Notes: generated by a model not told the origin, from the letters alone. Shown: positions 29,696-54,255, numbered from the stretch's first letter. The stretch: 64,000 bases of DNA from an uncultured Planctomycetales bacterium (GCA_964645795.1 CAZYCL010000008.1:8166-72165); one strand, 5' to 3'. Made by a program: numbers and translations.

Positions 29696-29730
29696 TTAGG
29701 TATCGGTTGCGACTGTCGGTTTCGTATATT
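29676..29730. repeat. Left inverted-repeat flank of the four-helix-bundle gene (CGGTNNCGG repeat family)
   Basis: cggtgtcggcttcggttaggtatcggttgcgactgtcggtttcg. Its reverse-complement-like partner lies at 30121-30180. Confidence 0.6.
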
Positions 29731-30118
29731 GTCTCTCTTTGAAATTGCTCCAGGCTAAAGAAAGCCGATAGAGCTGTCTGCTTATTTTATCAAACTTGTC
29801 TATTAATTCTTCGCAAAGAGCGACTTCTATACCATAAGCATCTTTTACGTGACAAAGAGAAACAATTGTTTCATTACTCTCCTGCATAGCGTCATCTATC
29901 AATGCTCTGAATCCTTTCTTTTGGTGCCTTTTGGAATATGCTTCAGCAATCAATCTAGGGACAGCCTTTGAGCTTCTTCGTAACTGGTCTACTAAATCAT
30001 ATTGCTCCTGTTTGGGTAATTTAGGTAGTATCGTAGTTAAGACCACAATTGAGCTTTTGTATGCATTTTGGTAGACATCGAGGTCTAAGAAACTCGTTAT
30101 TGTTTTTGATCCTTTCAT
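29696..30118 (-). CDS. Four-helix-bundle protein (TIGR02436 / '23S rRNA intervening-sequence protein' family)
   Basis: LDVYQNAYKSSIVVLTTILPKLPKQEQYDLVDQLRRSSKAVPRLIAEAYSKRHQKKGF...LYRLS matches the conserved four-helix-bundle pattern. The true start is probably the internal MKGSK, because the ORF-track N-terminus (MRFRTRIGCRRRF) is encoded by the flanking repeat. Confidence 0.7.
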   Translation of the reverse strand: MKGSKTITSFLDLDVYQNAYKSSIVVLTTILPKLPKQEQYDLVDQLRRSSKAVPRLIAEAYSKRHQKKGFRALIDDAMQESNETIVSLCHVKDAYGIEVALCEELIDKFDKISRQLYRLSLAWSNFKERQYTKPTVATDT

Positions 30119-30120
30119 GC

Positions 30121-30180
30121 GAAACCTCCTCCGACAACCGATACGTGTCCGAAACCGCAACCGAACCTATTTCTCTGCGT
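30121..30180. repeat. Right inverted-repeat flank of the four-helix-bundle gene
   Basis: cgacaaccgatacgtgtccgaaaccgcaaccgaacc is approximately the reverse complement of the left flank. Confidence 0.6.
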
Positions 30181-31009: not shown

Positions 31010-31543
31010 CTAGTGCAGGCGCATGCTGTGCAAGATGCGCTTGAACATCCTTTTGTAGATACGGTAGTCATCCTCCGAGGCGACACAGGTGACGATATAC
31101 ACCCTGCCGCGGGAGAACCAGGCAGCGGTATTGAAGATGAGGGTTATGGCGGTGAGCTTACTTTCGAAGTAAAGGCTCCTGCCGGGGTTAAACCCGGAGA
31201 AGATCCTGCTTTCTTCCATGTTCTTGACGTTGGGGATGGTATTCTCGATCTCCTGCTTGTTGGCCTCGAAGAACTGCTCCATGGAGATCTCGGCGGGCAT
31301 ATCTTTGACGATAACGTTGATATTGGCCTGGAACTTGTTTGGGATCCTGGCGTATTTGGGGTCCTTCACCAATATCGCCATGCCCTTGAGATTGGCCTTC
31401 TCCTGCTTCCAGTTCCTGGGCAGAAGTATGGAGAACTGGTTCTTCTTGTCCTCATAGAGCCTTACGGGCTGGAAAAAGCTGCAGCCTGAAACCAAGAGTG
31501 CCAGCGAAAGGAAAAAAGCTAAAAATCTGATATTTCTAATCAT
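31010..31543 (-). CDS. Lipoprotein of unknown function (signal peptide plus lipobox LVSGC)
   Basis: ORF track. MIRNIRFLAFFLSLALLVSGC; no further identification. Confidence 0.6.
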   Translation of the reverse strand: MIRNIRFLAFFLSLALLVSGCSFFQPVRLYEDKKNQFSILLPRNWKQEKANLKGMAILVKDPKYARIPNKFQANINVIVKDMPAEISMEQFFEANKQEIENTIPNVKNMEESRIFSGFNPGRSLYFESKLTAITLIFNTAAWFSRGRVYIVTCVASEDDYRIYKRMFKRILHSMRLH

Positions 31544-31579: not shown

Positions 31580-32467
31580 CTACATTTTGGGGATGAGGCT
31601 GCCTTCCATGAATTTTAGCATGATAGGGCCGGCCACGACAATCATAATAGCCGGAAGAATGCAAAAAAGCAAGGGAAAAAGTATCTTCAGGGATGCCTTG
31701 ATAGCGTAGCGCTCACCGTTCTGGAAACGCCTATCGCGGGTATCTTCGGATATGTTCCTGAAAGTCTCCTCCAGTGGCGTACCCATACGCTCTGCCTGGA
31801 CAATGGTGCGCACAAAGGTATTTATATCCATGCTTTCAAGGCGGCGCGCCATGTCTTTGAGCGCCTCAGTGCGGGTCTTGCCCATCTTGGTTTCATTCAG
31901 GACCATCTCCAGCTGTTCGATAAAGGGATCAGTGTCGCTTTTTTCAATCAACCACTTTACCGATGTAAGAAAATCGGCTCCCGCGCTTATGCACATATCC
32001 AAGAGATCCACAGTCTCGGGAAAGATCATGATTATAGCTTCTTTTTTGGCCTTGACCCTGTTCAAGAGGATCATATCGGGAACGAAAAACCCCAGCAGCA
32101 GCCCGCCCACGGCGTAAAGCATGTTGTAAAACGAGACGTAAAGCACCAGTGCCGCCACAATGCCCAAGACAAGCTTCTGCAGGAGCAACAAAGACATGTC
32201 CTGGCGTATCTTGAACACCTCACAGCGGCTTCTCAGTTTTTTGAAATACGGCATATTGGCCCAGGGCCGGAAGAGCGCAACGACAGGCTGGAATAATTTT
32301 GATTCGGAGAAAGGGACCTTTTTTTTGGCGGAAAGCGGGCCGATGGTCCCCGGACGGTTAAACAGGCTGGGCCTGGACTCCAGCCTGTTGAAAAGCACTC
32401 CTATCGACAAAAGAAAGGCTGCCGCTCCGACTAGAATCAATACCAATATAAAAGACGGTGTAATCAT
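31580..32467 (-). CDS. tadC: Tad pilus assembly inner-membrane protein, TadC-like (T2SS-F domain)
   Basis: 295 aa. Membrane helices flank a cytoplasmic T2SSF-like domain. Adjacent to a TadB-like paralog and pilin genes. Confidence 0.65.
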   Translation of the reverse strand: MITPSFILVLILVGAAAFLLSIGVLFNRLESRPSLFNRPGTIGPLSAKKKVPFSESKLFQPVVALFRPWANMPYFKKLRSRCEVFKIRQDMSLLLLQKLVLGIVAALVLYVSFYNMLYAVGGLLLGFFVPDMILLNRVKAKKEAIIMIFPETVDLLDMCISAGADFLTSVKWLIEKSDTDPFIEQLEMVLNETKMGKTRTEALKDMARRLESMDINTFVRTIVQAERMGTPLEETFRNISEDTRDRRFQNGERYAIKASLKILFPLLFCILPAIMIVVAGPIMLKFMEGSLIPKM

Positions 32468-32473: not shown

Positions 32474-33334
32474 TTAAAACTTAGAAGAGCTTATCCTACG
32501 GATAAGGATCATGCCTGCCACCTGCAGGGCAACGGCTACCAGCATCAGAAGACGGCCTTTTTCGGTATTAAGGAATATCTCAAAGTGCTCGGGGTTATTG
32601 GAGTAAACAAAATAGACAAAGACAAAAGGGAGTATGGACATGACTACGCCCTGCAGCTTTCCCTGCATGGTAAGGATGGCAATTTTGGCTTTAAGTTTTA
32701 TGTTATTGCGGATGGTGTCGGTGAGCCGGCTTAAAACCTTAGGCAGGTCTCCTCCGGACTCACGGGCAATAAGCAGCGCAGTCACCAAGAGGTTTACTTC
32801 CTCCAAGGGCAGGCGCTTCCTCATCCTCTTAAGCGACTCATCGAGACTGACCCCCCACTTGTTCTCCTTAAGCACCATCCCGAACTCAAGGGAAGCGGGA
32901 GGAGGCATCTCAGAGCATAACACCTCGATAGCCTGGATAAAGCTTAACCCCGCTTTTACCGAAGAGGAGAGGATCATGAGGCTGTCAACCATCTGGCCGC
33001 GGAACTTCTTGATGTGCCTGGCCCGGGCAAATTTAATGAGCATCCCGGGCAGGAAGAGGCCGAAGGCAAAGCCCACGATGATACCGATTATATGCTTTGA
33101 AATGAGGAACCCGGCTAAAGCAACGACAAGCGGCGAGAAGATAAGCATGAGCCGGTGGCGCTTGTCCTCGATGAAGATAAAAGACTCTTCCAGCCCCACG
33201 GAAAGGCGCTGTGCCCTTCTATTTTGAGACTCGGCGATCTTATTGAGTATGACCGGCAGGTAGGTATTAAGCAGATAAAAGCTAATGAGGGTTGCAGCGG
33301 CGAAAACAGCGAAAATTATTGCTACTATAAGCAT
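32474..33334 (-). CDS. tadB: Tad pilus assembly inner-membrane protein, TadB-like (T2SS-F domain)
   Basis: 286 aa with N- and C-terminal TM segments and a central T2SSF-type domain (…IARESGGDLPKVLSRL…). Confidence 0.65.
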   Translation of the reverse strand: MLIVAIIFAVFAAATLISFYLLNTYLPVILNKIAESQNRRAQRLSVGLEESFIFIEDKRHRLMLIFSPLVVALAGFLISKHIIGIIVGFAFGLFLPGMLIKFARARHIKKFRGQMVDSLMILSSSVKAGLSFIQAIEVLCSEMPPPASLEFGMVLKENKWGVSLDESLKRMRKRLPLEEVNLLVTALLIARESGGDLPKVLSRLTDTIRNNIKLKAKIAILTMQGKLQGVVMSILPFVFVYFVYSNNPEHFEIFLNTEKGRLLMLVAVALQVAGMILIRRISSSKF

Positions 33335-33336: not shown

Positions 33337-33510
33337 TTAGGGATTATATAATTCACCCTGCCCGAAGGCGTCTCCAGCGTCCCTTATTTTGCCGGACAGG
33401 CTGTTTCTTATATAATACCCCATAATCAGCAAAGCTGCAAGCACTAAAGCAAGCAGGACAGCGTAGTCGAGTATCTCTTGACCTTTCCTTGATCTGGCTG
33501 ATCTCATCAT
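33337..33510 (-). CDS. Small Flp/TadE-like prepilin (57 aa). Not in the ORF track because it is under 60 aa.
   Basis: Hand translation: MMRSARSRKGQEILDYAVLLALVLAALLIMGYYIRNSLSGKIRDAGDAFGQGELYNP*. It has a G-Q-x-x-x-(E/D)-Y class-III-type prepilin signal followed by a hydrophobic helix. It sits between the secreted-protein gene and tadB. Confidence 0.6.
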   Translation of the reverse strand: MMRSARSRKGQEILDYAVLLALVLAALLIMGYYIRNSLSGKIRDAGDAFGQGELYNP

Positions 33511-33513
33511 AAG

Positions 33514-34419
33514 TTAATATCCAGAAGAATCGCTTTTAGTAAACAATACGGTTACCATCGAGCCAAGATCAGGACCGGCATAATGCTGCACGACGTTGAT
33601 ATCGGCCTTGCCTCTTGACGATTCAAACGACATAAACGCGCTTTGGCTGATCATCTTTTCGATATTCAACCCGCCCTCAACCGGGGCCATGCCTTTTAGG
33701 GAAGGGCTTAATTTCAGCTCCTTACCCTTCTTCATTTTTCTTGCCTCTCTGTTGTACTCTTCGACCACATCCGAACCCTGCCGGTCCGAGACCATCTTCC
33801 AGCCGTAAGCCGGCATACTGGAACGGTAAAAATCCGCTGCCTGCGCAGGGGTCAGTTTTGTCTGGTAGGCATAGGCGGTGTAAAAAAGGTTCGGCTGAGG
33901 GCTGGCCAGACGTATGCTGTCCGGAGGCCGCGGGATAAAAGAAATGTCCTGGCCCGGCAGGTCCTCTTTGGGCAGCTCCGAAAAAGCCGTATCTCTAGAC
34001 GTTGGCCTTAACTGCTCCAAAGGAAGGCTGCCCGGCGACTCAATATGCTTTCCGGCGACGATGCGGGTCGAGCCGTCTTTGCTTTTTACGGAAATGGTCG
34101 CTACCTTATCGCCCTTCTTAAACCTCAAGAATACCTCTCCGGTCTTAGGGTTCCTCTGGTCCATGATATTTTGAAAACCTGATGCTGCAAGGCTGCGGCG
34201 GAAGAACTCCGCTGTATCCAAATCGCTTTGCTGCGTGTAATAAAGAAAGGATTTGACTGGCCTGCCGCCGTGGATAATATCCTTTTGGTCCTGCAAGACG
34301 GCATCTGCCGGGACAGCCAGCTCAAAATCGATATCGCTTTCTGCCCAAGAGAGGCCCCCCGGAAAAAGTAAAACCGCGAACGCGGCTAAGAACAGAAAAA
34401 ACCTGGCTCCTGTACGCAT
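33514..34419 (-). CDS. Secreted hypothetical protein (signal peptide), pilus-locus associated
   Basis: ORF track. MRTGARFFLFLAAFAVLLFPGGLSWA; no recognizable domain. Confidence 0.55.
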   Translation of the reverse strand: MRTGARFFLFLAAFAVLLFPGGLSWAESDIDFELAVPADAVLQDQKDIIHGGRPVKSFLYYTQQSDLDTAEFFRRSLAASGFQNIMDQRNPKTGEVFLRFKKGDKVATISVKSKDGSTRIVAGKHIESPGSLPLEQLRPTSRDTAFSELPKEDLPGQDISFIPRPPDSIRLASPQPNLFYTAYAYQTKLTPAQAADFYRSSMPAYGWKMVSDRQGSDVVEEYNREARKMKKGKELKLSPSLKGMAPVEGGLNIEKMISQSAFMSFESSRGKADINVVQHYAGPDLGSMVTVLFTKSDSSGY

Positions 34420-34420
34420 A

Positions 34421-35752
34421 TTATTGTGTTCTCATCAGCTCTGTTTCAAAAAGGTGATGCTGGGTATTGACCAAGCCGTCGGTGCAGGCGGAAAAATCCC
34501 AGGAGGATAGGCCATCGACCAAACATTGGATAAGCGTATGAAAAATCGTCGGCTCGATGGTCTCGTGTCCGGTCTTCATATAGGCGTGAGCGCTGGCTTT
34601 AGCGCCTACTGCCCCGTACTTAAATATCCACAAACCCAGGGTGCGGTTGTTGGCCTTATACCTTTTAACGTGCACACTAATGGGGTTATTGTCGGTTGCA
34701 TTGCGCACGCCTGTCTCTCCCAGTTCCGCAAAGCTAAGCCCGAAAGGCAATAAACCAAACAACGGGCAGATCATGGCTACGAATATAGCGATTATGCCGG
34801 CGATGAGCACAAACCACCAGGGGGCATTGTCTGTAGCCCTTTCCATTATAGCGTCAAACACGATCCCGGCAAGGTCCATGGCGGTCATGTATAAAAACAG
34901 GTTGTACTGAGAAGCACCCTGCACCGTCACCTCAACGTAGTTGGCGTGCTGCCTGTAGCTGTTACTCTCAAAACGGTCAGGAGTGCTTGCCCCAGGCGCG
35001 TTATGGCTGCCGCCCGAGTCGATATATCCGAAGCTGTTGGTAATGGTGGCGTCGGGGTTAGAGGTCCAGCCGTAACCTGAGGTGACAATGTAACGGGAGG
35101 CGTTGCTCGGCCGGATCCTGCCGATAGGCCTGGCAAACCCGATCTTATCCCAATCCATAAAGTGCGCCAGGCCGCTCTGGCTTAAGTATCGCGCGCGGTC
35201 CGTTTCAAGCCTGGTGTATTCGTTGTTATAGGAAATGAGGCTTGCGGCATCCAGAGAACGGGGGTCCTGGACCCCGCAGGCCCTTAAGAATTGTTCAAAG
35301 GTAGGCCGTGGCTCATCTATGCCGGCGTTGTTAAAGGCGTACTGCATAGCGGTCTTCTTGGCATTAGACCAGGCGACCCTGGTCTCTCCCCAACACTTTA
35401 TCACGGCTAATATCTGGGAGATATAATAGGCTATGGCTATGGCTATGGCTACTGCCGTGCCATAAGGGGGGAAGCAGGCGGCGATGATTATGGCAATGGT
35501 GCAGACCAAGCCCTGGCCGCACATCTGCTCGCTCTTTAGCCCCAAAGCCAGTAGCTCTCCGCTTAAGACGCTGGCAGCAGCCAGCGCTCCGGCATCCGCG
35601 GCGTTGGAAGCATCAGTGCGAAAGAGCGTAAGCTGGCCGGCGTTCAGAGTAATCATGAAAGCGATGATCAATAAGGCGGTTATAGCGATAAGAAAAGGGA
35701 ATATCTGGCCCTTTTCGTAATGCGTCTTGTTGTTGGCAAAACAAATGAACAT
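34421..35752 (-). CDS. TadG-like pilus assembly protein (TadG N-terminal-like domain)
   Basis: N-terminal TM followed by ...LTLFRTDASNAADAGALAAASVL..., resembling the Tad/TadG N-terminal motif. 443 aa. Confidence 0.5.
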   Translation of the reverse strand: MFICFANNKTHYEKGQIFPFLIAITALLIIAFMITLNAGQLTLFRTDASNAADAGALAAASVLSGELLALGLKSEQMCGQGLVCTIAIIIAACFPPYGTAVAIAIAIAYYISQILAVIKCWGETRVAWSNAKKTAMQYAFNNAGIDEPRPTFEQFLRACGVQDPRSLDAASLISYNNEYTRLETDRARYLSQSGLAHFMDWDKIGFARPIGRIRPSNASRYIVTSGYGWTSNPDATITNSFGYIDSGGSHNAPGASTPDRFESNSYRQHANYVEVTVQGASQYNLFLYMTAMDLAGIVFDAIMERATDNAPWWFVLIAGIIAIFVAMICPLFGLLPFGLSFAELGETGVRNATDNNPISVHVKRYKANNRTLGLWIFKYGAVGAKASAHAYMKTGHETIEPTIFHTLIQCLVDGLSSWDFSACTDGLVNTQHHLFETELMRTQ

Positions 35753-35777
35753 CTACCTGCTCCTTCTACGCTTGATA

Positions 35778-37292
35778 CTATTCAATAGTTTGCCATCTAC
35801 CGGTTTTGGAACGGCTATCGTAATTATCAACAAGATCATCATCGCTGACGCTATTAAGGGTCGTTGTTTGCCTGGGGTTTAGGCTGCCTTCAGCTTGCAT
35901 CGGCTCTAACTCAGGCCGATGAGGGCCTTCGGGATCTTCGCCGTCGCCGTCATCTTCTTCAGGCGGCTCTGGATCTCCTCCGGGATTCCAGTCGCCCTCC
36001 TCGTCATCTTCATTATCATAGCCTTCGGTATCCGGCTCATCCAGCATGTAATCATCCGCGTCAGTAGTAAGTTCAAAGATCAGGGGCGAGCAGCGCAGCT
36101 GGGACATGGCAGCCCCAAGGTAGAAGCCTCCCACTTCAGAGCACTGCACGCAGCATTTGGCCATGCGCTTAAGCTGCTTCCTTTCGCTTTTACCCTCCAG
36201 TTTGTCGCACTTGGTATCATCCTCAATATCCTTAGCGGTGCCGTAGGCAGAGTTGCAGAGCGCGGTGCATCTATTGTAGCGATCCTGATTCTCGACATTA
36301 TTCGGATCATCTTCATCCAAAAAGTCTCCGCAGGATTCCAGGCAGTCATCGCGGGCAGCCCGGCAATCCACGTTTTTGGGGTCATCTGAATCGTCGCCTA
36401 CGTCGCACAATAAGAAACACATATCCGCGGCGTAAAAGGCGATCTTCAGGGCGCCGCTCCTGCAGAGCGTATTCTTTTCGTTATCGTCGGCGCAGGCTTC
36501 CTGGGCAAAAGCAAAGGTCTCATTGGGATCAATAAAATCGCTGGGATCCTCGCAGCAGTTCTTTGAAACTACGCCTGTAGTATACAACGCAGAAGCCTGC
36601 CACAAAAGCCTCATCCCCATATCCCCAAGCCGATAAGCGGCTGCGATGAGGGTAAAGGCGGCTTTACCGCTTCGTTGCATGGCTTGACCAAAAAGATCTG
36701 CGCCTTGGTGCAAAAGATCCAGGCCTTCCCGGCCTAAAGTAGGAGGCTCGCCCGGAAGCGGCTCGCCTACATATATCTGTGATACGTTATACTCATACGC
36801 CTCCTCCCCCTTCTCTGTGCACATGCATATGGCAAAGGGGGCGCAGTTTGTATCAAAGTCGTCTGCGCTTCCGCAGGTCCCGTCATCGTTTGCCAGGGCC
36901 CATTCCATGCACTCTCTCCTCATATCCTCTTCAGTAGGACCGGGAGGCGCGCCGGTAACGGTTTCAGAGCTCTCTCCTCTGAACACCCAATTGTCGGTGA
37001 GGTCCAGAGGTTCGTAAGGACGCTGGGCAAAAGTAAGGTTAGCTTCATCAGTCCAGTTGGCCCTGATGCCTAACGGCGTTTTTTCCGTATTATACATCTG
37101 GTCAAGCTGTCCGGATTGGTCCTCGTAGCCGACCTTTCCGGCAATAAGGCGGCTTTCCTGATAGACGTGCTGCCTGCGGGCGTAGTTGGCGTCAAACCAG
37201 ATCCAAACCCTGACTATTCCCAGGGTCAAGGCAGAGACGGCAATAAAGGCGATGATGAAGTCCAGCGCTGACTGCGCTTTTCTATTTTCCAT
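35778..37292 (-). CDS. TadE-like pseudopilin-type protein with a large Cys-rich, highly acidic extracellular domain
   Basis: N-terminus RKAQSALDFIIAFIAVSALTL fits the TadE signal. There are about 30 cysteines, and the C-terminal tail is acidic (DEPDTEGYDNEDDEEGDWNPGGDPEPPEEDDGDGEDPEG). Confidence 0.5.
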   Translation of the reverse strand: MENRKAQSALDFIIAFIAVSALTLGIVRVWIWFDANYARRQHVYQESRLIAGKVGYEDQSGQLDQMYNTEKTPLGIRANWTDEANLTFAQRPYEPLDLTDNWVFRGESSETVTGAPPGPTEEDMRRECMEWALANDDGTCGSADDFDTNCAPFAICMCTEKGEEAYEYNVSQIYVGEPLPGEPPTLGREGLDLLHQGADLFGQAMQRSGKAAFTLIAAAYRLGDMGMRLLWQASALYTTGVVSKNCCEDPSDFIDPNETFAFAQEACADDNEKNTLCRSGALKIAFYAADMCFLLCDVGDDSDDPKNVDCRAARDDCLESCGDFLDEDDPNNVENQDRYNRCTALCNSAYGTAKDIEDDTKCDKLEGKSERKQLKRMAKCCVQCSEVGGFYLGAAMSQLRCSPLIFELTTDADDYMLDEPDTEGYDNEDDEEGDWNPGGDPEPPEEDDGDGEDPEGPHRPELEPMQAEGSLNPRQTTTLNSVSDDDLVDNYDSRSKTGRWQTIE

Positions 37293-37304
37293 AGTATTGC
37301 CCCC

Positions 37305-38069
37305 TTACTGGACAGGAGTGCTCCAGCTCCTGCTTCTTGAGATAACGTTGCCGACGCTTTCGGTATTATATTCGTAACGGTTCTCTTCGTTCAAAAGCAA
37401 GCCCTGACCACCTGTTTCGTAATTCGCGCGCTCTTCATATTGAGGGGCCGGGGTATAGTCATCCTCAGGATGCCTGCCCTCGGAGGTATCAAAACGGGTA
37501 TAAATAGTTGTGGCTAAAGTATCCTGCAGCTGCGAGGAGCGGGCGTTAGCAACTATACCGCCTGCCTCTCTTTTAGAAAACGAGGTGGAGTATGACTCAT
37601 CTCGCACGCTGGTTTCGCGATAGACGTTAACCGGCATCTTGGCTTCCTGCTTGCCGCCCATGGCATCGTAAATAACCTTGTCCTCGCGCGGAAGACCATC
37701 GTCCGGATCTCCTATCATCATCCCGTTTATCTCATAAAAGGCGAACGACTGTTCATCTTTGGCACCCTGCGCTCCGGGCTGACCCATCTGCCACATGACG
37801 CTGGCAGTAGAGCTAAGGCTGGTTGCCTGGCCCTGGCCCCAGCCGCCGGATAAGCTTGCCAGGCGGGTATCTTTTTTTAGGGAGTAGGAGACGCTGCTGT
37901 TTTTTTCGTAGGCCTTTTGCAGGGCCTTGCGGAAAGCTTCCATCTTGAGCTGATTCTGCATCTCAAGCCGCTGGCCGTAAGTGACGAGGGTGGAGAGCAC
38001 CAGGATCATGATCGTGCCGAATACGGCAAGCTCTATCGCTGCCTGGCCTCTATTCCTGCAAATTCTCAT
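37305..38069 (-). CDS. TadE/TadF-like pseudopilin
   Basis: MRICRNRGQAAIELAVFGTIMILVLSTLV carries the canonical TadE-family motif GQAAIE(L/F)A. Confidence 0.6.
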   Translation of the reverse strand: MRICRNRGQAAIELAVFGTIMILVLSTLVTYGQRLEMQNQLKMEAFRKALQKAYEKNSSVSYSLKKDTRLASLSGGWGQGQATSLSSTASVMWQMGQPGAQGAKDEQSFAFYEINGMMIGDPDDGLPREDKVIYDAMGGKQEAKMPVNVYRETSVRDESYSTSFSKREAGGIVANARSSQLQDTLATTIYTRFDTSEGRHPEDDYTPAPQYEERANYETGGQGLLLNEENRYEYNTESVGNVISRSRSWSTPVQ

Positions 38070-38111
38070 ACCACTCTCCTGCTTAATGTATATTTATAAA
38101 GACAAAACGCC

Positions 38112-38609
38112 TTACCAAAAACCCATACCCGACGGGGTTGGTATGTCCAGGCTCCAATCGAAGTCAAATAGCCACCCCAGATCTTCCAGTCCGGATAAGT
38201 CCAGGTCTAGCCCTAAACCGCTTCCTGTGTTGTTCTCGGTAACACCGATCGCGTTCAGCAATGCCTCTGCCCCTTCATCTACGCCGCCTGAAGTGCTGGT
38301 TTGGCTCTCTGAGCTGGAAGCTACGGTGCTTATGACTACCGAGGATTCTGTCCCGGAGTGATTTTCCTGAAGCCGGTAATTGGAGGCCTGCGTGCCGGTA
38401 GCATATACCCTTGAGGTCTCATCGCCCTTATAATCGTGCGGCTCCTGGCCCCAGCCTTCCCATAGAAGATAATTGGCGGTAGCGCCGATCTTCTTCATGT
38501 ATGCGCGCTTAAGCGGGTTGCCAAAAAGAGTAAAGAGGCTGAGTGCCACTCCGAGCGTCACTACCCAGCTTATCAGGCTGTTGGCCTTGTTTGAACTAGC
38601 GATCTTCAT
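38112..38609 (-). CDS. Membrane-anchored Ser/Thr-rich hypothetical protein in the pilin array
   Basis: ORF track. It has one N-terminal TM helix (SLISWVVTLGVALSLFTLF) and no prepilin motif. Confidence 0.5.
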   Translation of the reverse strand: MKIASSNKANSLISWVVTLGVALSLFTLFGNPLKRAYMKKIGATANYLLWEGWGQEPHDYKGDETSRVYATGTQASNYRLQENHSGTESSVVISTVASSSESQTSTSGGVDEGAEALLNAIGVTENNTGSGLGLDLDLSGLEDLGWLFDFDWSLDIPTPSGMGFW

Positions 38610-38914
38610 TGATAGGCCTCCACTCTCTCGCTCCTGGTCGTAGTCATAGAGCTGGAGCCGGTTGTTTGTGTCGCGCCGTCCGGCACGCCGGAGCCGCCTA
38701 CGCGGGTTGTGGAGCTGGAGGAGGTAGTGGTGATGATATTGGAGGTAGTGTGGCCGGGAGAGTACTGCGGGCCGACGTTATCAGCCTGCTCTTTAAGCCC
38801 TCCCTGATAGGCCCTTTTGATATAAAACTGCATCACCAGCAAAGCGCTGATGACCACCGCCACCAGTAGCGCATACTCGGGTATGCTTTGAGCTTTTCGC
38901 GACCAAAACCTCAC
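38606..38914 (-). CDS. Flp/TadE-like prepilin paralog (102 aa) with a Ser/Thr-rich tail
   Basis: MRFWSRKAQSIPEYALLVAVVISALLVMQ followed by ...TTTSSSSTTRVGGSG... Confidence 0.65.
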   Translation of the reverse strand: MRFWSRKAQSIPEYALLVAVVISALLVMQFYIKRAYQGGLKEQADNVGPQYSPGHTTSNIITTTSSSSTTRVGGSGVPDGATQTTGSSSMTTTRSERVEAYQ

Positions 38915-38949
38915 TACCTCCTCCTTGTTAGAGCAGCAAGCTAATATGC

Positions 38950-39366
38950 TTAAAAATCAGCCACGACATCAGTAGGCAAATCACCGGCTTCATAGCCTTC
39001 GGCTGCTGCGCCGTCCATCCTGGCATTGCTGGTCGTAGTGCGGGTGCCTCCTGAGCGCTCCGAATAAGTCAGAGCACCCTCAGGAGCTCCGATGGAAATG
39101 GAGCCGCTAAGCGAGCTGATATTTCCTGAACCTGAAGTAATGGTTTCCTGACCGGACAAAATCCTGCTTACCCTGGTTGTCGTGCCTGTCGCAGAGAAGC
39201 CTTCGCCCATCTGATCAGAAGACTCCTTCAGGTGTCCGGAGTAGCCTCTTTTGATAAAAGTCTGCATAAGTATAAGGGCAGCAATAACCACAGCCATGAG
39301 TATCACATACTCGATTATTGACTGGCCTTTTCTTTTACGAGAAAAAACCATATTCCACCTCCTCAT
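38950..39366 (-). CDS. Flp/TadE-like prepilin paralog (138 aa)
   Basis: MRRWNMVFSRKRKGQSIIEYVILMAVVIAALILMQ. Confidence 0.65.
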   Translation of the reverse strand: MRRWNMVFSRKRKGQSIIEYVILMAVVIAALILMQTFIKRGYSGHLKESSDQMGEGFSATGTTTRVSRILSGQETITSGSGNISSLSGSISIGAPEGALTYSERSGGTRTTTSNARMDGAAAEGYEAGDLPTDVVADF

Positions 39367-39374
39367 TCTGATTT

Positions 39375-39722
39375 CTATTCGACTTCCATGCCGCCGGTTG
39401 CGGTCTCCAAAGAAACGGAGTTGGTTATGGAAGTAGTCACCCCGCCTGCTGTTTCTCCACCGCCCTTCCTCATGGTCTTGGTATAGCTATCCGCGGTCAC
39501 GTTGGTAGCGGAACCCTCTGAACTGAAAAGAGTTACGCTTGCATCGTTAGTCAACGTATCGTTTCCCGCGTCCAACAAATAATTCACCGCCTGCTTGCTT
39601 TTTGTACGCATACCACCCTTAAGCATCATCTGCATGACTCCCGCAGCAACCGCAGCCACCAGGGCGATGACAATCGCGTACTCGGCAACTGATTGCGCTT
39701 TCCTGGATAACCTCATAAACAC
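39375..39722 (-). CDS. Flp/TadE-like prepilin paralog (115 aa)
   Basis: MFMRLSRKAQSVAEYAIVIALVAAVAAGVMQ. Confidence 0.65.
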   Translation of the reverse strand: MFMRLSRKAQSVAEYAIVIALVAAVAAGVMQMMLKGGMRTKSKQAVNYLLDAGNDTLTNDASVTLFSSEGSATNVTADSYTKTMRKGGGETAGGVTTSITNSVSLETATGGMEVE

Positions 39723-39805
39723 CTCCTTAAAAAATAATTCGTATGACGACAGCGCTTCACAAAACCCTATATCTGTGATTGGCTGTTAACCTCCTCACCC
39801 CGATC

Positions 39806-40006
39806 TTATTGAAATACGCCGGTGTTCAGATTGCCCGCAACGTTGGTTACGGCATCGGTCACTGAATCATAGGACGTCTCAAGCTTGTTCTTCATGCCGC
39901 CCTGACCGCCTGCTCCCAATAAAACAACGATTATAGCCATGATGACCACCGCTAAAAGCAGGGTGTACTCCAGGATGCTCTGGCCCTTTCTCTGTTTTTT
40001 CCTCAT
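39806..40006 (-). CDS. Flp/TadE-like prepilin paralog (66 aa)
   Basis: MRKKQRKGQSILEYTLLLAVVIMAIIVVLLG. Confidence 0.65.
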   Translation of the reverse strand: MRKKQRKGQSILEYTLLLAVVIMAIIVVLLGAGGQGGMKNKLETSYDSVTDAVTNVAGNLNTGVFQ

Positions 40007-40060
40007 TCTCTCACCTCCCTTTTTTTAAAAATTTTATACCCTCAACAACTGCTCCATATC

Positions 40061-40465
40061 TTATTGGTAGTGCATTTCTTGCGCGTGCCCGCCACCGCCA
40101 CCACCTCCGCCGCCCGTGCTGCCGCCGGGGTTATGTATGGGGTCGGGATCGTCATATTCGACATAATCCGGCTCGCCCTGGTGCGGATTAGTCTGCACCA
40201 AAGGATTATTGCCTACCCCGGGAGAGAAAGACGTGGCGCTATTACCTCCGGGAGGAGCGGCAAGCGTGTGAGCGTTAGTCTGCCCCACTGCGTCGCTGCG
40301 CCTGTAACTTAACTCCTCTTGTATCAACTTTAACTTGGCGTTTACCGAACGGTAGAGATACCTGTGGGTAAGGGCAATGGCGCCGGCGACAACCATGAAA
40401 AGTATGACGTATTCGATTATGCTCTGCGCTTTACCGCTGGCTCTGGGCATTTTGCCCTCCTGCAA
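40061..40465 (-). CDS. Flp/TadE-like prepilin paralog (134 aa) with a poly-Gly C-terminus
   Basis: MPRASGKAQSIIEYVILFMVVAGAIAL followed by ...GGSTGGGGGGGGGHAQEMHYQ. Confidence 0.65.
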   Translation of the reverse strand: MQEGKMPRASGKAQSIIEYVILFMVVAGAIALTHRYLYRSVNAKLKLIQEELSYRRSDAVGQTNAHTLAAPPGGNSATSFSPGVGNNPLVQTNPHQGEPDYVEYDDPDPIHNPGGSTGGGGGGGGGHAQEMHYQ

Positions 40466-40488
40466 TCTTTTGGCCCTGAAAGGCCGCT

Positions 40489-40734
40489 CTAATCCTCGCT
40501 AAATGACTCGTCGTCCGGCGGATCGGATATGACGATGCTCCCCGCGACCATCTCCCTGTAGGTGTTAAAATGATCCGTAAAGGCGTTGTTCGACGGGCGC
40601 TTGAGCATGACATTAATAATAACCACCACGGAAGTCACGCTTATCGCCGCCAGGATGATCAGCTCCACGGTACTCTGACCTCTTCCTCTCTTCATTGGCT
40701 TTAGCCTCATTTCGAAAAAAAATCCGAAAACCAA
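40489..40734 (-). CDS. Flp/TadE-like prepilin paralog (about 70-81 aa; start ambiguous)
   Basis: ...MKRGRGQSTVELIILAAISVTSVVVIINVML. There are three candidate in-frame Met starts. Confidence 0.6.
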   Translation of the reverse strand: MVFGFFFEMRLKPMKRGRGQSTVELIILAAISVTSVVVIINVMLKRPSNNAFTDHFNTYREMVAGSIVISDPPDDESFSED

Positions 40735-41089
40735 ACGGCTTCCGGAGCGATGAATAACGGATTTTTTAAAAGCTTTAGTAACTGCCTAAAAAATAAAAAA
40801 GAAATAGAGAAACTTGAAAATCCGGCATCGCTCCGTGGCCATCGTTGCCGTTTTTTTCAATTTAACTATAGCATCTATATATATTGGTGTCAATCATATT
40901 TAGCCAATGGTTGAAAGCGTTTTCATAATAAAAAACAGGGTTTACTGTTGAGATAAACTGAAACCTTTTCACGGACAACTTGCACCTTTTAGGTAAAATA
41001 TCAATGAATATAAAGAAAAGGATTGTTTATTGACAAAATGGACGTTTGATGATATATTGACTTTTAAGAAATGTCCAATCTGAGGGAAA
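40735..41089. promoter_or_regulatory. Divergent intergenic region with a canonical sigma70-type promoter (TTGACA-17-TATATT) for the 771-aa gene, followed by ATGTCCAA in the leader
   Basis: TTGACA at 41030-41035, a 17-bp spacer (containing ATGGACGT), TATATT at 41053-41058, ATGTCCAA at 41071-41078, GAGGG RBS, ATG at 41090. The pilin operon promoter on the other strand lies in the same interval. Confidence 0.55.
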
Positions 41090-43405
41090 ATGGGCGTAAT
41101 TCATAAATTAAAGCCGGAAATCCTGGATTTTATCCTGGAAACAAAGAAATCCCAGCCGCTAATAAGCTGCCGAAGCATGGCTGCGGAGATCGAAAAAAAG
41201 TTCTCTTTAAAGGTATCCAAATCCAGCATCAACGCTGTATTTAAGAGCGCGAGCCTCAGCCTTCCCGTAGGCAGAAGATCTATAAAGCAGAAGCCGCAAG
41301 CAGATAAACCCCCCTTGCTCCTGGAAAAGCTTACAGAAACACCTCAGCCTGTTGAATGCCGTCCGGATATCTTGCCATCTCTGGCTAAGGCCCCTTTTGC
41401 CCGGGAAATAATCGCTTCCGCGCAAAAAGAAGTAGACTCAAGCCTTTTGCCGGGTTACGCGAGCCTGCAGGAAGAAGCTGCTCCTGAGGCAGCGGCGCAG
41501 CCCGAGCCTGTTATTGAGCCTTCGATTCAGCCGGTTGAGTCGCCAGTTCAACCACCGCCAGAGACAACAGCTGTTACGCAGCCTCAAGCGGAAGCGGAAA
41601 AGGCAGAACCTGAAGCTGCAAAGGAGGCCATTGAAGAAACGCCTGAGAATCTTAAAGAGGCCACTCGGTCTCCAGAAAAGACAGAACCGCCTGTTGTAAA
41701 ACAAACCCCTGAAGAACAAACTGCTCAAGAGGCGCTGAAACCGGCCGCAGAAGATCAAACCGCTGAGAAGGCTAAACCAGCTGAGCAGATGCCTGAGGCT
41801 CTAGAGCCTGCGAAAGAGGCAACAACGCCTCCCGCGCCGCAGGCGCAGAAGCCAGCAGCGGCGCAACCCGTATTTGAGCCGGAAAAAGAAGCTACTGAAA
41901 TACAGGCTGCGCAAGAACCTGCTCAGCATGTCAAAAAGCCTTTACCAAAAGAGCCGGTCCCGACCGAAGAAAAACAACCCGCAGAAGTAAGCCTGCAGAA
42001 GCCTGCGCCGCTTCCTGAGCATCCGGTTGCAGAACCGCGAGAGATAAAAATAAAAGAGCCTTTGGAAACCCCTGCGGCCAAGACCGCAGGGACCACTCGC
42101 ACTGGCGCGCAAAAAACCAGAGGGCTGGTCATATTAAAAGCCGCAGACAACCTCCTTGGGGGCTCGCGCAGCCTGGCTGAGCTTTTCCGCAATCGAGTCG
42201 ATATCCAGGATAAGAGATTGAATGCCAAGATCGAGGCTTTGGTCTATGGCTCTCTTTTTCAAGAACTGGCCAGCGACGCCCTGCCTACTGATGAGATAAT
42301 AACCGCGGATGAAGCGGTGGAGGTATTGGACAAGCTACGTTCCTCTCCTAATCTGATACAGGAAAGCCTGAGGCTTCTCTTCAACGGCATCGAGGATGTG
42401 CGCTGTATAAAATTCATCCTCTCCGAAGGAAACCAGTTCTTTATCGACGGGCAGTTTCGCAGCGTCTGGTCTTCGCAGCACACCCCGCACAGCTTCTCAA
42501 ACGCCCTGGCAAACACCAAGCTTACTCTCAATAAGTACCTGTATGAGAACAACCCGCTCATTATCTTCTGCGCCCCAGGCAGGGACGTGCCTGCGCAAGA
42601 GCTCTTTGACATGATCGCAAGCCTTAACTACTCTGCCAAACCCATAAAGAAGATCGGGCTATGCGGACACAGGGATAACGACTTGGAGGTCCTGGCATTC
42701 GACCAGAGCTGCAGGCATTACTTTATCTTCGGGATGTTCCCCTGGCAGTATGTAAAGTTCCGCCGGGTAAAGAAGCTCGGAGAGTTTAAAACGGTAACTC
42801 TGGGGTATCCTAAGGGAGAGTGCCTGCTTGCCAAGGCCCAGGTGGAGTTGATCGAACCCTCCCTGCAGCAGTCGGTAGTCCTTAACGGCTGCGCGTTCAA
42901 GACGGACCCCTCAGCCAAGATAAAAGTGGTGATGTTAAGCAATATGCCGGAGGAGATGTTCACTCTGGAGGAGATGGCGGACGCTTACTTTAACCGCTGG
43001 ATAAACACCGAAGAAGGATTCCAGGATTTCAGCAGGAAGCTTGAGCTATTTACTTATACCGCGGGCTGCGAATATCACTTTAGCGCAGACAATCTGAATT
43101 TAAACCCCGGCTCGCCTTACACCGAATTTAAATCCCTGTTTACCAATTATGCCAGGGCAGCCGACCTTTACGCGCGCTGGAGCTTTTTCCCGCAAGGGTA
43201 TGAAAAACTGGATTTCCTGGAAGTTAAAAGGCGCATCTACAGTTTGGACGTGGAAGTAAAAAGGGAGCAAAGATACGCGGAGTATATGTTTGAAAGGCCT
43301 GCCGAGGCAAGCTACGCCAAAGACCTCGAGTATATCTGCCGCAGGTTAAATGAAAGAGAGATCGTTTCCGCCGACGGAAGGCGCCTGTGGTTCTCTATTA
43401 AATAA
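41090..43405 (+). CDS. Hypothetical 771-aa protein with three parts: N-terminal HTH-like domain, about 250-aa Pro/Glu/Ala/Lys-rich low-complexity linker, and a C-terminal ~400-aa domain of unknown function. Possible regulator.
   Basis: ORF track. N-terminus is KLKPEILDFILETKKSQPLISCRSMAAEIEKKFSLKVSKSSINAVFK. The linker is full of PEPxxE/KPAAE repeats. Divergently transcribed from the pilin array. Confidence 0.6.
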   Translation: MGVIHKLKPEILDFILETKKSQPLISCRSMAAEIEKKFSLKVSKSSINAVFKSASLSLPVGRRSIKQKPQADKPPLLLEKLTETPQPVECRPDILPSLAKAPFAREIIASAQKEVDSSLLPGYASLQEEAAPEAAAQPEPVIEPSIQPVESPVQPPPETTAVTQPQAEAEKAEPEAAKEAIEETPENLKEATRSPEKTEPPVVKQTPEEQTAQEALKPAAEDQTAEKAKPAEQMPEALEPAKEATTPPAPQAQKPAAAQPVFEPEKEATEIQAAQEPAQHVKKPLPKEPVPTEEKQPAEVSLQKPAPLPEHPVAEPREIKIKEPLETPAAKTAGTTRTGAQKTRGLVILKAADNLLGGSRSLAELFRNRVDIQDKRLNAKIEALVYGSLFQELASDALPTDEIITADEAVEVLDKLRSSPNLIQESLRLLFNGIEDVRCIKFILSEGNQFFIDGQFRSVWSSQHTPHSFSNALANTKLTLNKYLYENNPLIIFCAPGRDVPAQELFDMIASLNYSAKPIKKIGLCGHRDNDLEVLAFDQSCRHYFIFGMFPWQYVKFRRVKKLGEFKTVTLGYPKGECLLAKAQVELIEPSLQQSVVLNGCAFKTDPSAKIKVVMLSNMPEEMFTLEEMADAYFNRWINTEEGFQDFSRKLELFTYTAGCEYHFSADNLNLNPGSPYTEFKSLFTNYARAADLYARWSFFPQGYEKLDFLEVKRRIYSLDVEVKREQRYAEYMFERPAEASYAKDLEYICRRLNEREIVSADGRRLWFSIK

Positions 43406-43414: not shown

Positions 43415-43756
43415 TCATTGCAGCGCAAGCACATCCCCCAAAACTATCCCGTTTCTTGCGATGCTGCCAACAGGCAGCTCAACCGCGAAATAGGCCCTGT
43501 AAAAAATAGCGCTAAGCTGCCATGGCTTAAGCTGCGGGCACAACCCCACTACCCTGCCTTTCCTGTCGGAAAAAACCACATCTATGGGGAAACGCATGAA
43601 AAAGGTGTGCACCGAGTTGCATGGCCTGATAACCAAACATTGCCCGTCTGCAAGACCATCCCTGCCCAATAAACCCTTGAGCCTTTTCAAAAGGCTTCCG
43701 GCAACCTCGGCTTCTTCAGAGATAATATTGTTTTTGCTCAGATTTATTAATTTCAT
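43415..43756 (-). CDS. DUF192 (COG1430) family protein
   Basis: ...LKGLLGRDGLADGQCLVIRPCNSVHTFFMRFPIDVVFSDRKGRVVGL...AVELPVGS fits the DUF192 conserved pattern. Confidence 0.6.
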   Translation of the reverse strand: MKLINLSKNNIISEEAEVAGSLLKRLKGLLGRDGLADGQCLVIRPCNSVHTFFMRFPIDVVFSDRKGRVVGLCPQLKPWQLSAIFYRAYFAVELPVGSIARNGIVLGDVLALQ

Positions 43757-43901: not shown

Positions 43902-46046
43902 TTACTTCTTCTTAAACAACTCATCCGGGAGCGGTATGCCACGCAACCTGATATCTTCGGCAAAGGTGGGGATATAACCGGTAGGCAGGTAGTTACCGAG
44001 GACTTTTTTGTTCTCGTCAAGTCCCGTCTGCTTGAAAGCGAATACGTCATGCAGCCCGATATGGGTCTCATCGAGCATCCCGGCTATCTCGGTTATCTGC
44101 ATTACCCGGCGGCTGCCGTCGGAAAGGCGGGCGGTATGCACGATGATATCGACCGCGGCGGCGATCATCTCGCGGATAGAGCGCAAAGGCAGCTCTATTC
44201 CCGACATCAGTATCATGGAATCAAGGCGCGCCAGCACATCGTGGGTGGAGTTGGCATGAATTGTGGTCATGGAGCCGTCATGGCCGGTGTTCATGGCCTG
44301 GAGCATATCAAGGCTTTCTACGCCGCGGCACTCGCCGATGATTATCCTGTCCGGACGCATCCTTAAGGTGTTCCTGAAAAGATCCTTGATGGTAATGGAA
44401 CCCTTTCCTTCGATGTTCGGAGGACGCGACTCAAGCCTTATCCAGTGCACCTGATTAAGCTTTAACTCCGCGGCATCTTCGATAGTGATAATACGGTCGT
44501 CTTCCGGTATGAAGTTAGAGAGGACGTTAAGCACGGTGGTCTTGCCTGAACCGGTGCCGCCGGAGACGATGATGTTCTTGCGCGAGACCACGCAGGCGCG
44601 CAGGAAATCGACCATCGCCTGGCTCAATGACTTAAGCTCCACCAGCTCCTCTGCCTTGAAACTTTCCTTGCGGAATTTTCGTATCGTTACCGCCGGCCCT
44701 GTAAGGGACAGCGGCGGTATTATGGCGTTGACGCGGCTGCCGTCGTTAAGACGGGCGTCCACCATCGGCATGGACTCATCAATCCTTCTGCCGATAGGGG
44801 CGATGATCCTTTCGATAATGCGTTTTACCTGTTCATTAGAGACGAACTTTTTATTGGTCAATATAATCTTTCCATCGCGCTCGATGTAGACTTCGTCCTT
44901 ATTGTTGACCATGATATCGCTTATGCCCTGATCGGCGAGAAGGTCTTCCAGGGGCCCGAGCCCCAGGGCCTCATCCAGTATCTCCTTGATGATGGTCTTT
45001 CTTTCGTCGGCGCTGGAGAACAGGCCTCCTGCCTCCTCGGCCAGGATGTTGGTGACCACGATCTGCGCCCTTTCGCGCAATTCCCTGGCCTTCTCGACAT
45101 CGCTAAAGGCGTTGGAGTCCAGCCTTTTAATGTTTAGTTCATCGATCAGGCGGTTATGGACTTTACGTTTGAGTGAGGTAAGGGCATCTACTTCCTCAAC
45201 CGCCGCTCCCTTTGCCATCCGGCCCAGGCCCTGCTTTCGCCAGAAATCCCCTGCCTTGCCGGCTCCGGCAGAAGAACCCCTCTCTATCTGCTGGTGGTCG
45301 GCAAAAATGGTCTTGTCGTCGATAAGCAAGGCGGCGAGCTTGCTGATGGTCTGGGTTATCTTGGAGCGCGGGGCATCTGCCAGCACCGGGATACCGCGGT
45401 TTACCGCCTGGCCTACGATGCGGCCCTCGGAAGGTATCTGGACGAGTATGTCTATGGGCAGGGTCGCCTTGATCTCCTGCCAGCTTATGCTGGATACCGA
45501 TTCGGCGCGGTTTAAGATTATGCGCATCATCTTCAAGGGAAAATTCAGGGACTGCAGGGTATCCAGGACCCAGCGGGTCTGATAGACCGAAAGGACGTCG
45601 GGGGTGATCACCAGCAAAATAAGGTGCGCTTGATCGAGGATGCTGATGAGGGTGTCGCTGAAGCTCTGTCCTGCGTCTATGACGATATAATCATACTTCT
45701 CATCGAGGCTGGTGAAAAGATTGGTAACGGCAAGCTGGTCTATCTGGCAGGACTGCTGCGGGACCATGGTTGCACTTATGAAATCTAACCCAAGCTTGGT
45801 CTTGGTCAGGATCACTTCGTTTCTTAAGGTATCGACGTTGGCCGTAGCCAGGGTCTGCAGGTCTGCCAGGGACTTCTGAACGTTGATGTTAAGCATGCGC
45901 GACAAATCCCGGGGGGCCTGGAGGTCAAAATCGATAAGGCAGACGCGCTGCTGGTGGTGCGCGGCGAGGGCGGTGGCGAGGTTAGCGGCTATAAGGGTCT
46001 TACCCGCTCCTCCTTTTGCGCCAAAGAGAACGACAATCTTTGCCAT
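43902..46046 (-). CDS. Fused TadZ/CpaE-like (MinD/ParA-family) N-terminal domain plus TadA/CpaF secretion ATPase C-terminal domain
   Basis: N-terminus VVLFGAKGGAGKTLIAANLATAL carries the ParA/MinD deviant Walker A. C-terminal half has GGTGSGKTT (Walker A), IIIGECRG, and His/Asp boxes typical of CpaF/VirB11-type ATPases. 714 aa. Confidence 0.75.
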   Translation of the reverse strand: MAKIVVLFGAKGGAGKTLIAANLATALAAHHQQRVCLIDFDLQAPRDLSRMLNINVQKSLADLQTLATANVDTLRNEVILTKTKLGLDFISATMVPQQSCQIDQLAVTNLFTSLDEKYDYIVIDAGQSFSDTLISILDQAHLILLVITPDVLSVYQTRWVLDTLQSLNFPLKMMRIILNRAESVSSISWQEIKATLPIDILVQIPSEGRIVGQAVNRGIPVLADAPRSKITQTISKLAALLIDDKTIFADHQQIERGSSAGAGKAGDFWRKQGLGRMAKGAAVEEVDALTSLKRKVHNRLIDELNIKRLDSNAFSDVEKARELRERAQIVVTNILAEEAGGLFSSADERKTIIKEILDEALGLGPLEDLLADQGISDIMVNNKDEVYIERDGKIILTNKKFVSNEQVKRIIERIIAPIGRRIDESMPMVDARLNDGSRVNAIIPPLSLTGPAVTIRKFRKESFKAEELVELKSLSQAMVDFLRACVVSRKNIIVSGGTGSGKTTVLNVLSNFIPEDDRIITIEDAAELKLNQVHWIRLESRPPNIEGKGSITIKDLFRNTLRMRPDRIIIGECRGVESLDMLQAMNTGHDGSMTTIHANSTHDVLARLDSMILMSGIELPLRSIREMIAAAVDIIVHTARLSDGSRRVMQITEIAGMLDETHIGLHDVFAFKQTGLDENKKVLGNYLPTGYIPTFAEDIRLRGIPLPDELFKKK

Positions 46047-54247: not shown

Positions 54248-54255
54248 AAACGCAT

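Follow-up and report, generated by a model that had tools for sequence, protein, structure and literature searches.

What kind of machine is served by a row of small genes whose products all begin like prepilins? This question is raised by a stretch of 64,000 nucleotides (GCA_964645795.1, CAZYCL010000008.1:8166-72165; called the window below) deposited under an uncultured Planctomycetales bacterium. An earlier annotation (the original prediction) had placed an array of consecutive minus-strand prepilin paralogs at 33337-40734 of the window. According to our analysis, the region is the pilin block of a type IVc (Tad-type) pilus machine. The machine is conserved across the candidate phylum Omnitrophota and would work as outlined below. 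We assign this reading a probability of roughly three in four.

In the proposed mechanism, one Flp-sized protein, either the 57-amino-acid (aa) or the 66-aa type, would polymerize as the fiber. The mid-size pilins with Ser/Thr-rich tails would be low-abundance fiber subunits, possibly glycosylated. The TadG-like protein, a 165-aa protein without the usual Glu at position +5 (E5-less), a TadE-like 254-aa protein and a modular 504-aa protein would form a tip or initiation complex that primes assembly. The hypervariable, acidic and disulfide-rich C-terminus of the 504-aa protein would be shown at the tip as a module binding prey or host, and the pilus would act together with the downstream-encoded giant surface protein in attachment to other cells. 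The leaders would be removed by an A24-family peptidase encoded elsewhere in the genome, probably of the PilD type and tolerating Ala or Ser at position -1. We propose the three layers of tip, minor and major subunits because of the analogy with Caulobacter. The tip complex would mirror CpaJ/CpaK/CpaL of this bacterium and GspH-K of type II secretion. The Tad pili of Caulobacter have the two minor pilins CpaJ and CpaK and, as apical GspK-like initiator, the minor-pilin-like TadG/CpaL, and TadG/CpaL is supported there by experiments as a minor-pilin-like protein of the tip (bioRxiv 10.64898/2026.02.14.705861).

Prepilin-like genes inside a Tad-type locus

Using an open reading frame (ORF) listing and re-translation, we found minus-strand ORFs at all ten coordinates that had been pointed out. 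Translated in six frames, the window contains ten matches to the motif [KR][GA]Q[SAET]xx[ED][YLFI]. Nine of the ten occurrences belong to array ORFs, all on the minus strand and within 7.4 kb (33.4-40.7 kb), and each of the nine is followed by at least 10 hydrophobic residues. When the bases of the window were shuffled, the motif appeared 0.1 times on average and once at most. Thus, the group of minus-strand genes with a prepilin signal between 33337 and 40734 is borne out. Independent gene calls in other assemblies of the same organism give proteins of 68, 129, 66, 113, 133, 102, 165, 254, 504, 443, 301 and 56 aa. About twelve proteins of the locus have N-termini that can be recognized as class-III (prepilin) signals: a short basic leader, a small residue (Gly, Ala or Ser) at predicted position -1, invariant Gln at +1, Glu or Asp and then Tyr at +5/+6, and a hydrophobic helix after these.

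The tails that the original prediction had called Ser/Thr-rich are real. After the helix, Ser and Thr make up 29-42% of the ~115-, ~138- and 102-aa array proteins, and 11.8% of the neighboring proteins. These tails may plausibly be glycosylated. The predicted poly-Gly tract was confirmed as a run of nine Gly in the 129-aa protein; mixed GGN codons encode it, and it is not prone to slippage. The genes do form a block on the minus strand. They are not all consecutive, however, since a TadG-like gene (34421-35752) and a gene for a 301-aa protein (33514-34419) separate the 57-aa prepilin gene from the others.

We compared the locus gene by gene with one syntenic locus from a metagenome-assembled genome (MAG; L004) and nine Omnitrophota loci from GTDB (L005-L013). 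Scans with Pfam and NCBIfam showed that the array lies in a tad-type locus, which runs on the minus strand from 49.5 kb down to 31.0 kb. The order is peptidyl-prolyl isomerase (PPIase), CpaB/RcpC, secretin, TadZ-TadA, DUF192, a 771-aa protein (on the plus strand), the array, TadG-like, 301-aa, 57-aa, TadB, TadC and a PsbP-like protein. By its TadZ-TadA ATPase, TadB/TadC platform, CpaB and secretin, the machinery is classified as Tad-type. The CpaB/RcpC protein (47654-48565, minus strand, as for all genes of the locus unless stated) reaches 142 bits with TIGR03177 against a cut-off of 71, and also matches PF16976. The RcpA/CpaC-like secretin (46048-47649) matches Secretin (E=2e-41) and T2SS-T3SS_pil_N, and carries a TonB_C domain (E=1.7e-15) at its C-terminus. 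The 714-aa ATPase (43902-46046) matches T2SSE (E=1e-64) and ParA/CbiA. Its TadA/CpaF half gives 331 bits with TIGR03819, just missing the equivalog cut-off of 373, in contrast to 55-57 bits with GspE and 50 bits with PilB. The N-terminal 250 aa, which form the ParA/MinD-like TadZ half, match ParA/CbiA/MinD and CpaE_hom_Actino (E=1.9e-12). The TadB-like (32474-33334) and TadC-like (31580-32467) platform proteins have one T2SSF domain each (E=9e-20 and E=1.7e-16); two separate single-domain platform genes are the split arrangement that defines Tad and Epd systems (PMC6668835). The 443-aa TadG/CpaL-like protein reaches 29.2 bits with the Tad model PF13400 against a cut-off of 22.3. Its N-terminus, [KR]GQ(I/L)xP(F/Y)L, is kept in eight loci and represents a degenerate signal without the acidic +5 residue. 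The matches to CpaB, TadA, TadB/TadC, secretin and TadG support the claim of the original prediction that signals of the Flp/TadE/class-III kind stand here in a tad-type locus, and the array proteins are accordingly described as prepilin-like proteins of this kind on the strength of their signals.

Two fusions were seen among these genes. The fusion of a secretin with TonB_C is unusual for RcpA/CpaC secretins and is also present in L004. The TadZ-TadA fusion (711-727 aa) is found in eight of the eight related loci that cover the full gene.

The same apparatus might instead build a pseudopilus like that of a type II secretion system (T2SS), that is, a short periplasmic piston with a tip that pushes the giant protein, its fragments or hydrolases through the secretin. 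West-Roberts et al. call the locus T2SS-like and describe it as regularly preceding giant genes (10.1101/2023.11.21.568195), and in the window the locus is followed, on its own strand, by ORFs of 2294 aa and at least 6914 aa. The E5-less members and the count of pilin-like proteins recall GspG-K, and a PPIase chaperone belongs to the locus. Nevertheless, all diagnostic parts are of the Tad type, namely the CpaB equivalog, TadZ, the split TadB/TadC pair, TadG and a TadA that scores far above GspE. The markers of type II secretion stayed well below their cut-offs (GspE 55-57 bits against more than 600, GspF 20 bits against 424), and there was no NCBIfam pseudopilin match. None of the ORFs scanned matched GspC/L/M, tadD or rcpB in Pfam or NCBIfam. 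In addition, the giant ORF has three transmembrane (TM)-like segments in a hydropathy scan and no class-III signal, and so fits passage through a secretin poorly. We therefore consider a pseudopilus unlikely.

Signal family and leader processing

A profile made from seven pilins of the window retrieved 110 homologs. Every homolog that has an organism name comes from a Candidatus Omnitrophota/Omnitrophica MAG; therefore, the window belongs to an Omnitrophota genome. A few of the 110 are labeled 'Flp pilus assembly pilin Flp' or 'UPF0333' by the Joint Genome Institute (JGI). Their leaders have 4-16 aa. Position -1 is Gly in about three-quarters of them, Ala in about one-quarter and occasionally Ser. 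Gln at +1 is nearly invariant, +2 is mostly Ser, and +5 is Glu or Asp. In L011 and L012 (7.8-10.9 kb), Gly never stands at the predicted -1 position; all pilin-like genes have Ala or Ser there.

Individual Pfam scans of the 110 homologs gave weak matches to Class_IIIsignal (31 proteins), DUF4244 (28), DUF3290 (20) and Flp_Fap (12, at E<0.1). The best of these were 5.6e-6 for Class_IIIsignal and 2.6e-4 for Flp_Fap, and two homologs carry a precomputed PF04021 match. A profile search of PDB sequences with the 110 homologs found nothing significant; the best pilin was that of Geobacter (E=0.87), with only the cleavage sites aligned. We also ran the comparison with Pfam TadE and Flp that had been suggested as a check, and neither threshold was reached in the window. 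The best Flp_Fap (PF04964) match, that of the 66-aa protein, has 12.3 bits (E=0.15) against 32.2, with the Flp hallmark Glu5-Tyr6 present. With TadE (PF07811), the 254-aa protein has 12.6 bits (E=0.15) against 22.9; 4 of 24 members of its family match, the best with E=0.0027. The best Class_IIIsignal (PF04021) match, that of the 68-aa protein, is weak as well, with 17.3 bits (E=0.0045) against 23.7, and has the leader, Gln +1, Glu +5 and helix all present. Because there are weak matches to Class_IIIsignal and Flp_Fap, yet the window proteins stay below the cut-offs, these profiles make the family a diverged branch within the class-III/Flp type of pilin signal, outside all curated models.

Which enzyme could remove the leaders? 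Pfam found no Peptidase_A24 on any window ORF of at least 150 aa, and the catalytic motif GxGDxK is absent from the window and the ten related loci, in agreement with the earlier statement that the window has no prepilin peptidase. Short contigs reached outward from the right edge of the window contained no peptidase, and a literature search on the prepilin peptidase of Omnitrophota gave nothing relevant. The Peptidase_C39 domain of the giant ORF was considered for cutting the leaders and discarded: C39 enzymes cleave behind sites of the double-glycine type, and here position -2 is Lys or Arg. Often, a prepilin peptidase gene stands apart and serves more than one system, and such 'loner' enzymes are common in type IV filaments (PMC6668835). 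Part of the supplement to a study of Omnitrophota lists K02654 (PilD) for at least two genomes of the phylum (PMC10066038).

It is also conceivable that a non-A24 enzyme processes these proteins, or that none does, and that they are membrane-anchored components and not filament subunits. The missing A24 motif agrees with this and would explain loci without TadV. Ala or Ser is frequent at -1, and the locus has conserved genes without an assigned function (those of the 301-aa, DUF192, PsbP-like and 771-aa proteins). However, since separately encoded peptidases are common in type IV filament systems, this explanation is less economical. Class-III signals of archaea are cut by PibD, which accepts Gly, Ala and Ser at -1. 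The invariant Gln +1 and Glu +5 match the substrates of the EppA type in Methanococcus maripaludis (PMC3875500), which points to ordinary class-III processing. In our opinion, processing outside the A24 family is quite improbable.

Several points weigh against the reading of the region as the pilin block of a Tad pilus. None of the twelve window proteins reaches the cut-off of a curated pilin model in Pfam or NCBIfam. No peptidase was located by a search that covered the window and related loci of 13-21 kb. Bacterial prepilin peptidases are usually described as requiring Gly at -1, a position that Ala takes in about a quarter of the family and that only Ala or Ser take in L011 and L012. Among solved pilins, there is no match for the beta domain of the 254-aa protein, and the model of this protein has no match in PDB. 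The major pilin may be either of two candidates, the 57-aa or the 66-aa type. Finally, tip location, adhesion and glycosylation are inferred indirectly.

Conserved order and individual pilin types

The related loci have the same pilin types in the same order, with 7-12 per locus in ten Omnitrophota loci. TadA identity between the loci is only 54-64%; the gene order is nonetheless fixed. The order starts with a ~50-aa type, followed by the YKYVYRSMNARLKQ type, a ~60-aa EYTLLLGAII type, the AEYAIVIGLVIAVAAG type, the IKRGYQGGLK type and the IKRAYQGRLKQ..QQYSPGHTTS type. Next come the E5-less type with an invariant Trp at +6, a ~260-aa YGQRL type and a 400-600-aa RIWIWFNANYA type. The TadG-like protein, a ~300-aa secreted protein, a ~55-aa YYIRNSLSGK type and TadB with TadC close the order. 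Genes of the window are nearer to their positional orthologs in distant genomes than to their neighbors in the window. For instance, the 102-aa type shares 50-62% identity with its orthologs and 38% with its closest paralog in the window, the ~138-aa type. Because the orthologs are closer than the neighbors despite the low identity of TadA, the expansion is ancient. Judging by these comparisons, the set consists of old, fixed and distinct types and not of recent paralogs, and each type presumably has its own role. The term 'paralog array' used earlier is therefore right in that there are more genes than in canonical tad loci, and wrong in implying local expansion, since each gene has its own collinear ortholog in ten loci.

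Two of the related loci differ in composition. In L005 (7034-9252), a cassette of three genes (57-, 123- and 144-aa types) is repeated. L013 (154-3742) has 12 motif-bearing genes and is without TadG and the 301-aa gene. A recent tandem duplication for antigenic or phase variation of the major pilin, which the similar N-termini of the small and mid-size genes and the local duplications in L005 and L013 could suggest, is largely refuted by the closeness to distant orthologs, by the order fixed in ten loci and by the absence of slippage-prone or recombination repeats from the array.

Taken from the upstream end (all on the minus strand; a slash marks the predicted cleavage site), the array begins with a small prepilin-like gene at 40489-40695. 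Its product has 68 aa from MKRGRGQSTVEL, with RG/QSTVEL and a hydrophobic helix; the same length was called in the independent assemblies, and an alternative TTG start at 40734 would give 81 aa. Its positional orthologs are found in L004-L010. The second gene (40061-40450) encodes the 129-aa protein with KA/QSIIEY and the Gly run near the C-terminus. Its N-terminal 43 aa are 63% identical to a 51-aa ortholog in L004, and the orthologs, with the conserved YKYVYRSMNARLKQ, usually have about 50 aa. The third (39806-40006) encodes an Flp-sized prepilin, a candidate major pilin of 66 aa (58 aa when mature) with KG/QSILEY. It has a strong Shine-Dalgarno-like sequence, AAAGGGAGGTGAGAGA, and its ortholog is present in two copies in both L004 and L005.

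Three mid-size prepilins follow. The 113-aa protein (39375-39716; KA/QSVAEY) has a Ser/Thr-rich tail and is 50% identical to a 136-aa ortholog in L004. The 133-aa protein (38950-39351; KG/QSIIEY) has a tail rich in Ser, Thr and Gly and belongs to the orthogroup with IKRGYQGGLKESADKMGEQFS. The 102-aa protein (38606-38914; KA/QSIPEY) has the tail with 42% Ser and Thr and belongs to the orthogroup with IKRAYQGRLKQEAD..GQQYSPGHTTS. Its AlphaFold2 (AF2) model is confident in the helix only: residues 11-46 form a helix with a predicted local distance difference test score (pLDDT) of 86-93, followed by a beta hairpin of low confidence.

The next protein, of 165 aa (38112-38609; KA/NSLISW), had been taken for a motif-less membrane protein. 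It turned out that it carries a prepilin-like site, [KR][GA][HYNQ]S...W, without the acid at +5. The site is common to its orthologs in eight loci, with Trp invariant at +6, and the protein has weak homology to the 102-aa (E=8.5e-4) and ~138-aa (E=0.009) pilins. The 254-aa protein (37305-38069; RG/QAAIEL) is a large, TadE-like putative minor pilin, and its model has a long helix and a beta domain (pLDDT 87.6). Thus, a pilin-like architecture of the 254-aa protein and the helix of the 102-aa protein are predicted with confidence. Beyond the TadG-like and 301-aa genes stands the shortest Flp-sized prepilin (33337-33510; KG/QEILDY), the other candidate for the major pilin, with 57 aa (47 aa when mature). 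No Shine-Dalgarno-like sequence precedes its gene. Its orthologs are 46-58% identical, always lie immediately upstream of tadB, and bear the JGI name UPF0333.

The largest member (35778-37292; KA/QSALDF) is a modular pilin of 504 aa and a candidate tip adhesin. It has 21 Cys, and not about 30 as had been counted before. A word-indexed homolog search gave only two proteins, and an exhaustive search of representative sequences was needed to see the family. In this search, 102 representative clusters aligned to residues ~1-160 only. The C-termini of the family are unalignable, acidic and Cys-rich: the median Cys count is 38, and a member of 1233 aa reaches 109. Positional orthologs are present in L004-L012. 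Because a conserved N-terminal pilin module carries a hypervariable, Cys-rich C-terminus, we propose that the protein may bind at the tip; such a module with a putatively disulfide-rich head would suit an adhesin displayed there.

Other genes of the locus and comparison with known systems

The remaining genes of the locus are conserved to different degrees. The first conserved gene (48565-49515) encodes the PPIase, a parvulin-type, SurA/PrsA-like protein (Rotamase_2, E=1e-12) that is conserved in related loci. The DUF192 protein (43415-43756; PF02643, E=2e-17) is present in four related loci. The 301-aa protein has a Sec-type signal peptide and orthologs at the same position in nine loci; it matches nothing in Pfam, NCBIfam or PDB. 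The last conserved gene (31010-31543) encodes a PsbP-like lipoprotein (PF01789, E=3.9e-9) found in eight related loci. The 771-aa gene (41090-43405, plus strand) is inverted here and in the independent assemblies, and its homologs in six related loci share the strand of the tad genes. PDB sequence searches with the 771- and 301-aa proteins were uninformative. The 771-aa protein has a linker rich in Pro, Glu, Ala and Lys and a weak HTH_32 match. We considered a transposase-like insertion on account of this match and rejected it, since the gene is regular in six related loci and is not flanked by terminal inverted repeats. The intergenic region at 40750-41090 contains divergent sigma-70-like sites facing both ways, each with 11 of 12 matches.

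On the downstream side, a four-helix-bundle '23S rRNA intervening sequence protein' gene (29696-30160, minus strand) stands between the locus and the large ORFs; there is no rRNA in the window. Next, ahead of the giant ORF, comes the 2294-aa ORF (22411-29295, minus strand), whose product has a signal or TM segment at its N-terminus, Gly/Thr-rich low-complexity sequence and no Pfam match. The giant ORF (1-20742, minus strand) has no stop over at least 6914 aa and continues beyond the left end of the window, with a TM segment near residue 59 and Peptidase_C39 (E=4.8e-6) at residues 211-298. It is a giant gene of the Omnitrophota type downstream of a tad-like locus. Directly upstream of the locus (49843-52496, minus strand) are genes for a GT-C glycosyltransferase (PMT_2, 606 aa) and a DUF268 methyltransferase-like protein. 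The glycosyltransferase is a candidate modifier of the Ser/Thr-rich tails, and the DUF268 protein may also modify pilins. Beside the locus lies a three-gene cyclic-di-GMP module (53030-56712, plus strand) that encodes a FIST sensor, a histidine kinase and a GGDEF response regulator. At 61489-62022 (minus strand), a bacterial SET-domain protein (E=3e-18) is encoded in a polyamine cluster with a spermidine synthase and a saccharopine-dehydrogenase-like protein.

How does this locus relate to what has been described? West-Roberts et al. in 2023 reported, in one sentence, a conserved Omnitrophota locus that precedes giant genes and contains 'many small genes' similar to class III signal peptides, and named the PPIase as part of it (10.1101/2023.11.21.568195). 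Seymour et al. in 2023 reported Tad complexes in Omnitrophota and their expression in Velamenicoccus archaeovorus co-cultured with Methanosaeta (PMC10066038). The link with secretion and pilus genes is made again in a 2026 preprint. The window has the same phylum by homolog names and the same place upstream of giant genes, and nothing essential differs. Thus, it is a further instance of a known, sparsely characterized locus and not a new kind of system. The 2023 studies do not take the small genes apart. Our contribution is to list the parts, to show that about ten pilin types keep a fixed order, and to point out the members without Glu5, the modular pilin with its Cys-rich end, the use of Ala and Ser at -1, the consistently missing peptidase and the inverted 771-aa gene. 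The Omnitrophota, uncultured and for the most part ultra-small, are suspected predators or parasites. Few conserved features hint at how they contact other cells, and the Tad-like locus beside giant genes is one of them. The parts list makes a one-line remark in the literature testable, from the pilins, the Glu5-less members and the Cys-rich head to the peptidase presumably encoded elsewhere.

With canonical Tad/Flp systems (Aggregatibacter, Caulobacter Cpa, Pseudomonas), the locus shares CpaB, secretin, TadZ, TadA, TadB, TadC and a TadG/CpaL-like protein, as well as Flp-sized pilins with Glu-Tyr at +5/+6 and larger TadE/F-like minor pilins. Unlike them, it has about 12 prepilin-like genes in place of the usual three to five (one or more major pilins, two minor pilins and TadG/CpaL). 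Gln at +1, Ala or Ser allowed at -1, no tadV found at the locus, TadZ fused to TadA, a secretin with TonB_C and pilins that the Pfam Flp and TadE models do not reach also set it apart. As in GspH-I-J-K of the T2SS and in the PilV/W/X and PilY1 tips of type IVa pili, there are distinct putative low-abundance pilins, an E5-less apical candidate and a large member that may bear an adhesin. By this likeness to GspH-K and PilVWX, a tip-complex role is proposed for the TadG-like, 165-, 254- and 504-aa proteins.

The Epd pili of M. maripaludis resemble the locus in their short leader, Gln +1 and Glu +5, and the best Pfam match of the family is the archaeal Class_IIIsignal. This archaeon has about ten pilin-like proteins in size classes of ~70, 130-156 and 200-299 aa; several of its minor pilins are indispensable, and its pilins carry glycans (PMC3875500). 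In contrast to Epd, the Omnitrophota locus is diderm-bacterial, with secretin and CpaB, and keeps the Flp Tyr at +6, which is absent from M. maripaludis pilins. Its pilin genes form one operon-like block and are not spread over at least four sites, and there is no EppA-like peptidase of its own beside it. An Epd-like archaeal ancestor has been proposed for Tad systems (PMC6668835), and the combination of EppA-like Gln +1/Glu +5 with Flp-like Tyr +6 fits such an origin. A bolder and rather doubtful version is that the Omnitrophota machine is a distinct early-branching or archaeal-like type IV filament, marked by a fixed set of about twelve pilins, by Gln at +1, by Gly, Ala or Ser at -1 and by loci that lack a peptidase of their own, with a non-canonical maturation enzyme, PibD/EppA-like or wholly different. 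Its filament or pseudopilus would then be one unit with the downstream giant proteins, displaying them, anchoring them or helping their export in prey attack. The signal features themselves place the family between bacterial Flp and archaeal Epd pilins, which bears on the archaeal origin of Tad pili.

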